Shown here one piece after another: positions 1 through 313 of a stretch of 313 bases of DNA. A program made the position numbers and the translations under genes. Below the pieces are notes generated by a model, which saw only the letters and a program-made list of their open reading frames with translations, made no database searches and was not told where the DNA came from. Where the stretch lies: assembly GCF_003334255.1 (NCBI RefSeq), contig NZ_QOWU01000266.1. One strand, given 5' to 3'. Every line of letters begins with the position of its first letter. Positions within the stretch are counted from its first letter, which is position 1. Source of the DNA: Escherichia coli (lineage in GTDB: Bacteria; Pseudomonadota; Gammaproteobacteria; Enterobacterales; Enterobacteriaceae).

Positions 1-2
1 TG

Positions 3-313
3 TCAGTATGCGCGCTGGAACAGCCCGATGCCTTCATTGTCATTTGTCGACGTAATTTCATTACACACCATCCATGACCCCGGAACTGAGGATAGGTTGC
101 CGTCAATGCCATCGGTGTTAGCTTTCATATAGTTTCCGTTTTCGTCTTTGATTAGGGCGCATCGCTTAAGGCGTGAACCCGATACAGTTTCTCCTGGCTG
201 ATAGGTTCTGCCGATGTCGGTTATATACGGGCCTAGTGCGGCAATAATGTATGTTCCGATGCTGTAAATTTCCCCGGGTACCAGCCTTCCGGTTGGCCCT
301 TGTGGTCCCTGTG
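3..313 (-). CDS. C-terminal fragment of a collagen-like-repeat protein, probably a fibre or receptor-binding protein (prophage tail-fibre-like or C1q/BclA-like); 5' end lies outside the window
   Basis: Seen in sequence: reverse-complement frame 3 is open for 102 codons from forward 311 down to 6, with a TGA stop on forward 3-5 (forward tca). Forward 312-313 are the last two bases of a further upstream codon (NCA: Pro, Ser, Thr or Ala). All other frames are interrupted: minus frame 1 by TAG after 26 codons, minus frame 2 by TAA after about 46 codons, forward frame 1 at 130-132, forward frame 2 at 53-55, forward frame 3 after about 24 codons. Translation: QGPQGPTGRLVPGEIYSIGTYIIAALGPYITDIGRTYQPGETVSGSRLKRCALIKDENGNYMKANTDGIDGNLSSVPGSWMVCNEITSTNDNEGIGLFQRAY*. 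Frequent CCG, CTG and GGC codons fit a ~50% GC host. The product call is inference from domain layout, not from a recognised homologue. Confidence 0.75.
   Translation of the reverse strand, partial: QGPQGPTGRLVPGEIYSIGTYIIAALGPYITDIGRTYQPGETVSGSRLKRCALIKDENGNYMKANTDGIDGNLSSVPGSWMVCNEITSTNDNEGIGLFQRAY
282..313 (-). other. Collagen-like Gly-X-Y triplet run at the window edge (GPQ-GPT-GRL), likely the C-terminal end of a longer triple-helix region
   Basis: Seen in sequence: Gly at every third residue for three consecutive triplets, with Pro in the X position twice, then the periodicity breaks at VPGEIY. Only three triplets are visible because the window ends here, so extension upstream is inference. 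Confidence 0.45.

Follow-up and report, generated by a model that had tools for sequence, protein, structure and literature searches.

Which domain ends the collagen-like fiber encoded at this locus of Escherichia coli, and is it a receptor-binding head that is rewritten by hypermutation or switched by inversion? The window, by which we mean the whole stretch of 313 nucleotides (nt) analyzed here, encodes on the minus strand of positions 1..311 the sequence QGPQGPTGRL-VPGEIYSIGTYIIAALGPYITDIGRTYQPGETVSGSRLKRCALIKDENGNYMKANTDGIDGNLSSVPGSWMVCNEITSTNDNEGIGLFQRAY-stop. Translation places residue V1 of the tip at 281..279, residue Y92 at 8..6, and the TGA stop codon at 5..3, so that the coordinates 6..281 and the length of 92 residues given in the first-pass annotation are exact. 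The features of the window are listed below, with tip residues numbered from V1 and the basis of each entry in parentheses.

3..5, minus strand: TGA stop codon of the fiber gene (translation)
6..281, minus strand: 92-residue C-terminal tip domain, V1 to Y92 (92/92 identity to the C terminus of the ED1a fiber)
6..26, minus strand: C-terminal family motif GLFQRAY, residues 86 to 92, conserved as TL(W/F).R(V/I)x at the protein end (family alignments)
63..83, minus strand: family motif PGSWMVC, residues 67 to 73, conserved as PG(T/S)W.C across the family (family alignments)
132..167, minus strand: 12-residue segment KRCALIKDENGN, residues 39 to 50 (alignments and variable columns)
222..233, minus strand: polymorphic loop, residues 17 to 20, with the replacements G17A and I20T/A (variable columns)
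234..260, minus strand: hydrophobic family motif 1, IGTYIIAAL, residues 8 to 16, conserved as (I/V)G(T/S)Y..A.L (family alignments)
282..313, minus strand: terminal Gly-X-Y triplets of the collagen-like stalk, QGPQGPTGRL (translation; Pfam match to Collagen, PF01391, on the full protein)

To judge from the annotated tail fiber coding sequences (CDSs) that match it in complete E. coli genomes and phages, this frame is a genuine gene. At its 3' end, the side (lateral) tail fiber gene of E. coli prophages is 100% identical to the window, which matches annotated tail fiber CDSs at 100% in 6 complete E. coli genomes and at 95.7 to 99.7% in 22 more. It is also found, with the tip, in 8 sequenced phages; the plasmid collection contains no match to it. 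The full-length fiber proteins carry 180 to 330 Gly-X-Y residues, which places a collagen-like stalk before the tip, as had been assumed; the Pfam match to Collagen (PF01391) has an E value of 1e-8, and residues 1 to 134 match the PfN domain (PF08400) with E=1.5e-42. An N terminus of the Stx-phage (podo-) type is found in loci L003 and L007 to L010. The gene occupies either the stf position of lambda (J, lom, fiber, chaperone) or the lateral-fiber position of Stx-phage-like short-tailed prophages. The protein that ends in the window, with its last 92 amino acids (aa) forming the tip, is a collagen-like tail fiber of E. coli prophages, and the tip is indeed the C-terminal end of a collagen-stalked phage fiber.

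By its domain content, this fiber has the EPclC architecture described by Ghosh et al. 2012 (PLoS One): it combines the collagen domain (PF01391), a PfN or Stx-type N terminus, and a non-PfC C terminus, and its tip is identical to that of a fiber matched to a listed EPclC protein. EPclC fibers and the window fiber share a PfN or podo-type N terminus, a short coiled coil, a collagen domain with the G-x-P-G-G-P-x-G interruption, an optional Pf2 repeat, a second collagen domain, and the non-PfC tip, and do not differ by any of the criteria compared. The tip is identical in 92 of 92 residues to the C terminus of a 566-aa fiber of strain ED1a (CU928162.2, at ~1.138 Mb), which corresponds to ECED1_1138 by strain, length (566 aa), and position. 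Ghosh et al. gave ECED1_1138 as “EPclC*” and referred to a variant C terminus by the name “PfC2” only, the paper giving no PfC2 sequence (PMC3368898). From the agreement in strain, length, and position, we infer that the window tip is this PfC2. What is added here for the EPclC tip is a set of relatives, a partner chaperone, a conservation pattern, and evidence of mobility.

The tip was initially left without a family, and this assessment holds: it has no match in Pfam even at E<=10 and none in NCBIfam, and neither strand of the window matches Rfam. A phmmer search with the tip alone against 1.84 billion representatives retrieves only near-identical E. coli proteins and long Ig-like-repeat proteins, and two word-indexed homolog searches retrieve only close relatives. 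We rejected the Ig-like-repeat proteins as homologs, as they score through an “xDxxGNxV” strand motif summed over 6 to 9 stretches, i.e., through low-information repeat matches. Sequence searches of the PDB, with the tip alone or with a small profile, return only noise, such as the water-soluble chlorophyll protein and designed WD40 proteins. The AlphaFold2 model of the tip monomer has a pLDDT of 36, and that of a hand-made trimer linked by (GGS)10 has a pLDDT of 31; models in this range are unusable, and structural matches to them are meaningless.

Profile and motif comparisons place the tip in an unnamed tip family that also ends the tail fibers of Aeromonas and Pseudomonas (Pbunavirus) myoviruses. 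The tip matches phrog_17472 with E=5e-4 and the C terminus of the Aeromonas phage 32 fiber with a BLASTP E value of 6e-9 and an hhalign probability of 89.7%, and a profile built without any E. coli sequences recovers it with E=1.7e-10. Through the Aeromonas tip, 253 phage records are reached. The link between E. coli and Pseudomonas runs via the Aeromonas tips because the E. coli tip and the Pseudomonas (Pa193) tip, compared directly, show no significant similarity. The family motifs found in the tip are (I/V)G(T/S)Y..A.L, PG..V.GS.L, PG(T/S)W.C, and, at the C terminus, TL(W/F).R. Both the Pbunavirus tips (Pa193 gp47, PE1 gp78, and LBL3 gp42) and those of Aeromonas P2-like phages and Chaseviridae (phage 32, phiO18P, and pAh6-C) have motifs in common with the E. 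coli tip along the whole domain, and the family members sit at the extreme C terminus of tail fiber proteins. PDB entry 9b45 (Pa193 gp47), the only related one, was considered as a solved homolog of the tip and rejected, since its modeled part covers residues 1 to ~350 only. Identity between the E. coli tip and its Aeromonas and Pseudomonas relatives is ~24 to 33%, and the E. coli tip has 12 extra residues: the segment KRCALIKDENGN, which contains the polymorphic residues 43, 47, and 48, is missing from the tips of both genera and is a candidate for an exposed specificity loop. In addition, the E. coli tip is mounted on the collagen stalk of sipho- or podo-type temperate phages, whereas its relatives are found on beta-structured myovirus fibers.

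The homology to Pbunavirus fiber tips makes a receptor-binding role of the E. coli tip plausible. In PE1 gp78, an adaptive Thr-to-Ile change has been reported to improve adsorption and lipopolysaccharide (LPS) recognition; it arose together with a baseplate mutation, and its individual effect was not isolated (PMC12635225). The mutated position, PE1 nt 47791, falls into codon 901 (Thr); this codon is within the homologous domain, and its counterpart in the alignment is the polymorphic residue 20 of the E. coli tip, although the alignment of this loop is approximate.

A gene for a tail fiber assembly chaperone had been expected downstream of the tip, and a gene of this kind, encoding a DUF4376 protein (PF14301; E=7.9e-20 for residues 72 to 182 in Pfam), directly follows it. 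It starts 16 to 19 nt past the fiber stop codon in every source locus, i.e., outside the window, and the order tip, DUF4376 gene, and YadA/Eib-like gene is the same in 18 of the 18 independent loci examined. Other DUF4376 proteins, those of phage V22 and of the CJIE1 H-fiber, are experimentally required as fiber chaperones, and by analogy the protein encoded here is probably a fiber chaperone as well. The Pbunavirus and Aeromonas fibers, too, are followed by a protein with homologous N-terminal residues: the first ~60 residues align in five of five cases (BLASTP E=2e-8 to 5e-15), but the C-terminal halves are dissimilar, consisting of DUF4376 in E. coli and of Caudo_TAP or Phage_tail_APC in the relatives. 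The profile of this chaperone family matches Mu Tfa U (5yvq_B; E=4.6e-9). The Stf-Tfa pair of lambda and the S-U pair of Mu, found in the same slot after J and lom, likewise consist of a fiber tip and a downstream assembly protein, and the PF08400 N-terminal domain of lambda Stf is common to the window fiber. However, the stalk in lambda and Mu is a T4 gp37-like beta-structure and that of the window fiber is collagen-like, and the tip sequence has no relationship to any PDB entry, including that of the Mu fiber-chaperone complex. In the one PfC-tipped locus examined, the fiber gene is followed by short PfC-like fragments instead of a DUF4376 chaperone gene.

The presence of a separate intermolecular chaperone gene downstream of every tip also bears on the possibility that the tip is itself a C-terminal intramolecular chaperone that is cleaved after assembly, as in the endosialidase and T5 pb1 fibers, which carry Peptidase_S74. 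Although its position at the extreme C terminus of a trimeric fiber would be the expected one, the tip has no Pfam match at all, Peptidase_S74 included (E<=10), and, with 92 residues, it is shorter than Peptidase_S74 (~150 residues). We regard this explanation as very improbable.

Variation among the E. coli copies is low: only 15 of 279 nucleotide sites are variable, 11 of these 15 columns change the amino acid, and the polymorphic residues are 17, 20, 34, 43, 47, 48, and 62. The dN/dS ratio of the tip is 0.6 to 0.9, an estimate that comes from just 3 synonymous and 6 to 9 nonsynonymous differences. The predominance of amino acid changes within this small variation speaks in favor of a receptor role.

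Overall, the tip is 93 to 100% conserved. Such conservation is atypical for a domain engaged in an arms race and counts against a receptor-binding explanation.

The distribution of the variable sites addresses the proposal, made with low confidence, that the gene carries at its 3' end the variable region of a diversity-generating retroelement (DGR), which a reverse transcriptase would rewrite from a template repeat. The last ~25 residues do look loosely like such a region (GSW followed by GLFxR), and there are three Asn codons of the AAT type. The enrichment in Asn, Thr, and Ser that had been noted in the last residues is marginal, with 7 of the last 25 residues compared to 21 of 92 in the whole tip. 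Against this reading, the window is not repeated, even in part, within 12 kb on either side or up to the end of the phage genome, and, by annotation, no reverse transcriptase is encoded in the prophage flanks or among the 79 annotated genes of the complete 51-kb phage PhiR5_1. Adenines account for 4 of the 15 variable sites compared to an A content of 31%, which is what base composition predicts and shows no adenine bias. Far from being a variable end, the last 28 codons contain only 3 of the 15 variable sites and are near-invariant in every copy; no other part of the tip is as conserved in the 23 E. coli copies read directly. GLFQRAY (residues 86 to 92) is near-invariant in all of them, and this family motif is conserved in other genera as well. 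The Mtd protein of Bordetella phage BPP-1 is comparable to the tip in being the C-terminal receptor-binding end of a phage tail fiber, but the template repeat, reverse transcriptase, and adenine-directed variability of DGR proteins such as Mtd are all lacking here, and the C-terminal stretch of the tip is invariant. The DGR hypothesis is thereby refuted, and we give it practically no credence.

Invertase-switched fiber cassettes exist in E. coli prophage fiber genes, and the tip is modular, so that it could conceivably belong to a set of interchangeable C-terminal cassettes under the control of a Gin/Cin-type invertase, as in Mu, P1, e14, and Rac. However, no invertase gene or inverted alternative fiber segment is present downstream in any locus; the genes found there (chaperone, eib, and small open reading frames) are all co-oriented, and the sole long inverted repeat, instead of bracketing the tip, is contained in the collagen-coding repeats. 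Phase variation by an invertase, which had been raised together with the DGR, can be dismissed for these loci with near certainty. Exchange, the third source of variability envisaged, is borne out by the data: the tip moves as a cassette between phage backbones. The tip, the DUF4376 gene, and the gene for an Eib-like adhesin form one block that is common to unrelated lambda-like and Stx-phage-like backbones, with its left junction inside the collagen-coding repeats. A broader interpretation, which we put forward tentatively and consider somewhat less than an even bet, is that the tip, the tip-specific N-terminal domain of the chaperone, and eib constitute a self-contained portable cassette that spreads among co-resident prophages of different morphotypes through recombination in the Gly-X-Y repeats, which would serve as a universal splice adaptor, and that the pair of tip and chaperone N-terminal domain is an ancient unit of siphoviruses, podoviruses, and myoviruses in three genera. 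If correct, this would explain why there are up to 8 places per genome that match the tip, with 4 complete copies confirmed in one strain.

What, then, does the tip do? In EPclA and EPclB fibers, such as Sp5 ORF67, 933W L0121, and phi24B gp61, the same position after the collagen stalk is taken by PfC (PF06820, Phage_fiber_C), a small globular C-terminal knob for which trimerization has been shown and receptor binding is presumed. EPclA fibers have been shown experimentally to form dumbbell-shaped trimers with a C-terminal trimerization knob, and their PfC is an autonomous trimerization domain (PMC3368898); a homologous fiber with a PfC tip, essential in Sp5, forms six lateral trimers. We considered the tip as a relative of PfC and rejected this option for want of sequence similarity, as BLASTP gives no alignment between the two tips at E<=100 and the PF06820 profile does not match the tip at E<=10. 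The position shared with PfC, the high conservation of the tip, and the doubts of the phi24B authors that a signal can travel along the flexible collagen shaft would all suit a module whose main function is trimerization and registration, nucleating the collagen helix and leaving host recognition to J or other tail proteins. This appears unlikely, though it is the least improbable of the alternatives considered. Members of the family also sit at the distal end of noncollagenous myovirus fibers, where collagen registration is inapplicable; an adsorption-related adaptive mutation lies within the homologous domain of PE1; and exchange involves the whole tip together with a chaperone domain specific to it, as is typical of host-range modules. 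Trimerization and receptor binding are mutually compatible roles.

We therefore favor the view that the tip probably forms the knob at the distal, C-terminal end of a trimeric side or lateral fiber with a collagen stalk, and that this knob is folded with the help of the chaperone and binds a receptor on the E. coli surface; the receptor, the trimerization, and the dependence on the chaperone are what we infer. On this model, the N-terminal domain of the chaperone would recognize the tip and assist the three chains in folding and coming into register, starting at the C-terminal end. The trimer core would consist of the conserved motifs IGTYIIAAL, PGSW.C, and GLFQRAY, and folding from this end would nucleate the collagen triple helix, a function that PfC, though unrelated, has in EPclA. 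Once folded, the knob would attach to a receptor on the E. coli surface, which may be LPS as in Pbunaviruses, and so make adsorption faster or wider. A point against this view is that side fibers are dispensable accessories in lambda. The polymorphic residues 17, 20, 34, 43, 47, 48, and 62 would lie in exposed loops and tune the specificity.

The tip is an ordinary fiber tip, well conserved and moving together with an assembly chaperone of its own. This will not surprise a phage biologist, and it removes the speculative reading of the locus in terms of a DGR or phase variation. The analysis links the non-PfC tip of EPclC to the fiber tips of Pbunavirus and Aeromonas phages and to a matched chaperone domain, which provides a usable annotation for hundreds of phage fiber proteins without a Pfam family at their receptor end, and residues 17 to 20 and 39 to 50 are candidate specificity loops for engineering. 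The collagen-coding repeats emerge as a recombination junction for swaps of host-range modules between lambda-like and Stx-phage-like prophages with eib virulence genes. If the portable cassette is real, it would couple a determinant of phage host range to a bacterial gene for serum resistance and immunoglobulin binding.

The minus strand of the window, translated from base 311, encodes QGPQGPTGRL, then the 92 residues of the tip and a TGA stop codon at 5..3. The boundaries given to this C-terminal domain in the first-pass annotation are exact, and the domain is real and correctly delimited. The remaining ORFs listed for the window are short and unsupported, and no Rfam family was matched on either strand. 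The landmarks of the tip are as follows.

281..279, minus strand: V1, first residue of the tip (by translation)
159..161, minus strand: Cys41, invariant in all E. coli copies and present in most family members
63..65, minus strand: Cys73, invariant in all E. coli copies and across the whole family
8..6, minus strand: Y92, last residue of the tip (by translation)

Within the trimer, Cys41 and Cys73 could possibly form a disulfide or bind a metal.

The full-length fiber starts with the prophage tail fiber N-terminal domain (Pfam ID PF08400, E=1.5e-42), followed by a short Ala/Glu-rich coiled-coil-like stretch and a stalk of 180-330 residues of Gly-X-Y collagen repeats with a G-x-P-G-G-P-x-G interruption; longer versions add a Pf2-type repeat to the stalk. 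The tip itself has no match in Pfam, even at E<=10, in NCBIfam, or in a PDB sequence search. The collagen-like prophage fibers of E. coli have been sorted into the EPclA to EPclD architectures (Ghosh et al. 2012, PMC3368898), of which EPclC and EPclD were stated to end in regions that bear no relation to the PfC knob (PF06820); one variant C terminus was labeled “PfC2,” with no sequence given. An exact-protein look-up revealed that strain ED1a encodes the same DUF4376 protein as phage PhiR5_1. The ED1a fiber gene just upstream of it codes for 566 residues, just as listed for ECED1_1138 (EPclC*). Its tip is identical to that of the window in 92 of 92 positions. Because of this match in length and sequence, the window is assigned to the C terminus of the EPclC architecture, and the tip forms the distal knob of a collagen-like tail fiber of the EPclC type. 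From the same architecture, we infer that it is the “PfC2” of Ghosh et al., a domain previously named and never characterized.

All 313 bases are found at 100% identity in the chromosomes of six complete E. coli genomes and at 95.7-99.7% identity in 22 more (28 of 5,426 genomes in total), as well as in eight temperate phages whose genomes are sequenced, including PhiR5_1/2 and PhiR12_1-5; the window is absent from all plasmids of the plasmid collection. In strain EC2 and phage PhiR5_1, the genes are arranged in the order tape measure, L, K, I, J, lom, fiber, DUF4376, YadA-like, small ORF, and dinI, so that the fiber gene sits where a lambda-type phage has its side tail fiber (stf) gene. Two of the exact tip copies in strain DETEC-S792 lie on different backbones, one terminating a lambda-type fiber and the other a 677-aa fiber of a prophage whose capsid gene is of the N4-gp56 type and which also has a DUF6682/SU10-adaptor gene, i.e., a short-tailed Stx-phage-like backbone. 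Both arrangements also occur among the other loci examined. Carrier genomes contain a median of 3 and a maximum of 8 tip-matching places; DETEC-S792 (NZ_CP116067.1; L003, L004, L012, and L013) carries at least 4 complete tip-chaperone-eib modules on different prophages, and multiple tip-matching places are also seen in NZ_CM129862.1. This multiplicity suggests spread or homogenization among co-resident prophages.

Some copies are decaying. The DUF4376 gene is frameshifted in EC2 (L001:12331-12905), one of the six genomes that match the window at 100%, and the fiber gene is frameshifted in LM996879.1 (L015:2474-3981), where the tip is readable in another frame and has variant residues. The EC2 prophage also has an ompC porin gene annotated within the tail cluster, between the M-like “phage tail protein” gene and L (L001:3078-4241). 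This gene resembles a moron and may relate to superinfection exclusion or to replacement of a receptor.

All 18 of the independent loci examined have the DUF4376 gene next after the tip and, two genes downstream of the tip, a gene for a YadA-anchor trimeric autotransporter, for example:

L001:13386-14633: YadA-anchor gene in the EC2 prophage
L002:9705-10778: YadA-anchor gene in another locus
L003:7717-8832: YadA-anchor gene in DETEC-S792

This adhesin matches the immunoglobulin-binding protein EibD (PDB 2xqh, E=2.9e-21), which identifies the carriers as P-Eib-type prophages. In pairwise BLAST comparisons, the shared block begins within the collagen-coding part of the fiber gene and stays 96.8% identical across the tip and the chaperone gene into eib, where a gap is followed by 89% identity. 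The eib virulence gene moves in the same block as the fiber tip. The podo-type fiber N terminus is present in 186 phage records, mostly from Stx-converting phages, only two of which carry the tip; the standard Stx-phage fiber parts from the tip-bearing one within the collagen region and terminates in the unrelated PfC. Among fibers bearing an identical tip, lengths run from 402 to 690 residues and differ by multiples of the collagen repeat. We conclude that the tip is a rare alternative cassette, exchanged by recombination in the collagen repeats. The first-pass view of the tip as an exchange hotspot holds in that homologous recombination occurs in these repeats, with no dedicated enzyme involved.

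In a standard Stx phage (L020:6440-8022), what comes after the PfC-tipped fiber gene is no chaperone gene but a set of short “tail fiber C-terminal domain” fragments that an IS3-family element interrupts; Mondal et al. (2016) suggested that such fragments are a reservoir for tip variation. Two predicted proteins from short ENA contigs of 641 and 2641 bp (P0006 and P0004) have unrelated N termini fused to the tip exactly at its “GEIY” start, that of P0006 being residues 1-56 of the DUF4376 protein, which contains “GEAGEI”; these are either assembly chimeras or products of recombination at a short motif common to both partners. The collagen-coding region also contains an imperfect inverted repeat of 31 nt (L002:7448-7478 and 7887-7917), probably a by-product of the GGN/CCN-rich repeats.

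Across nine loci, 15 of 279 nucleotides are variable, 11 of these columns being amino acid changing (at residues 17, 20, 34, 43, 47, 48, 62, and 84). Twelve of the 15 sites fall in codons 1-64 and 3 in the last 28 codons; additional copies bear out this pattern, with the last codons the most conserved. The polymorphic residues form two clusters, in the loop after the IGTYIIAAL motif and in a 12-residue segment specific to E. coli. The dN/dS ratio of 0.6-0.9 rests on 3 synonymous and 6-9 nonsynonymous differences. Adenine occupies 4 of the 15 variable sites, no over-representation given 31% A in the sequence. The last ~25 residues had been likened to the distal end of a diversity-generating retroelement (DGR) variable region; they are instead the most conserved part and contain a cross-genus family motif. 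A search for further copies of the window, whole or in part, that extended ±12 kb or to where the phage genome ends found none, and no reverse transcriptase is annotated in the prophage flanks or in the complete, typical lambda-like PhiR5_1 genome. With no template copy, no annotated reverse transcriptase, no adenine bias, and conservation where variability was proposed, a DGR is refuted. Phase variation by an invertase is refuted as well: the loci lack an invertase gene, an alternative cassette in inverted orientation, and inverted repeats on either side of the tip.

With only the tip as query, an exhaustive phmmer search of 1.84 billion representatives matched near-identical E. coli sequences; matches to Ig-like-repeat proteins were discounted, since their scores summed many weak stretches of repetitive proteins. 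Two weak matches were to phrog_17472 (E=5e-4), a tail protein profile of 872 positions, at its C-terminal end, and to Aeromonas phage 32 (tblastn E=0.2), at the extreme C terminus of an 868-aa protein in the P2 “H” fiber position; the gene after it, of 136 aa, takes the “G” chaperone position. Compared directly, the E. coli and Aeromonas phage 32 tips align with a BLASTP E value of 6e-9 and an hhalign probability of 89.7%, and the first 57 residues of the downstream proteins are 40% identical (E=3e-15). Used as a query, the Aeromonas tip retrieved 253 phage records, including about 218 Pseudomonas Pbunavirus (PB1-like) fibers, with matches covering the whole domain. The fibers of LBL3, phiO18P, vB_AhydM-H1, pAh6-C, and PE1 are matched over their last ~84 residues, and a gene of 141-158 aa comes directly after each. 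Direct comparison of the E. coli and Pseudomonas tips alone is not significant, so this link is transitive via the Aeromonas tips; a profile lacking any E. coli sequence recognizes the tip of the window with 27 bits (E=1.7e-10, single comparison). The family shares, in order, the motifs (I/V)G(T/S)Y..A.L, PG..V.GS.L, PG(T/S)W.C.G(Y/F), and TL(W/F).R(V/I)x, the last forming the C terminus; an additional segment of 12 residues, K39-N50, is particular to the E. coli tip. No family member matches any Pfam family. Judged by sequence, the tip is not an orphan and belongs to a wider, unnamed fiber-tip family with a matched chaperone.

The tail fiber assembly chaperone gene anticipated downstream is indeed present, directly after the tip. 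The E. coli protein has its DUF4376 domain at residues 72-182, and its N-terminal ~60 residues are common to the downstream proteins of all five relatives (E=2e-8 to 5e-15); the C-terminal halves differ, with Pfam assigning three of the proteins to Caudo_TAP, two to Phage_tail_APC, and one to DUF4376. The N-terminal domain goes with the tip type in three genera and three virion morphotypes, regardless of the C-terminal domain; conversely, PHROG families matching only residues 60-191 of the E. coli protein combine the DUF4376 half with other N termini. The profile of the downstream proteins matches the phage Mu tail fiber assembly protein U (5yvq_B, E=4.6e-9), and experiments have shown post-fiber DUF4376 proteins to be necessary chaperones for the Campylobacter CJIE1 H-fiber and in Alteromonas phage V22. 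These data fit the chaperone model that one of the DUF4376 papers credits to North et al. Just outside the window, at the start of the chaperone gene (L001:12326-12350 and equivalents in L002-L010), overlapping ATGs (ATGAATGTGG) precede an adenine homopolymer, either A7 or A6. Translation begins at the second ATG in A7 copies (MWKK...) and at the first in A6 copies (MNVEK...), which keeps the gene open when the homopolymer slips by one base.

AlphaFold2 modeling of the tip from a shallow family alignment gave a mean pLDDT of 36, compared with 31 for a linked-trimer construct. In the PDB, the family profile hits 9b45 chain 2 (Pa193 gp47, residues 879-962; E=2.6e-19); this entry does not provide a solved structure of the tip, because only about the first 340-350 residues are built, according to the structure's paper. 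For the sister PfC-tipped fiber, which is essential in Sp5, immuno-EM indicates a position at the tail end, and cryo-EM of phi24B reveals six lateral trimers. Produced recombinantly, EPclA forms dumbbell-shaped trimers, and its C-terminal knob trimerizes autonomously.

Biofilm-adapted Pbunavirus PE1, with improved adsorption and recognition of truncated LPS, carries a Thr-to-Ile change in fiber gp78, placed by the authors at the tip of a C-terminal loop, as well as a baseplate mutation (PMC12635225). The reported nt 47791 corresponds to codon 901 (Thr) of the deposited gp78 gene (L027:291-3179), a five-residue offset from the “T896”/“T896I” numbering of the paper. This codon sits in the loop after the GSY..A.. 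motif and, in an approximate loop alignment, is matched to the I/T/A-polymorphic residue 20 of the E. coli tip. The most likely mechanism, which we regard as quite probable, is that chaperone-assisted trimerization would start from the C terminus and that the receptor would then be bound through the two polymorphic loops. The genomic context, the homology, and the exchange of the cassette are demonstrated here, and folding, trimerization, and binding are inferences. The tip is a piece of ordinary phage biology.
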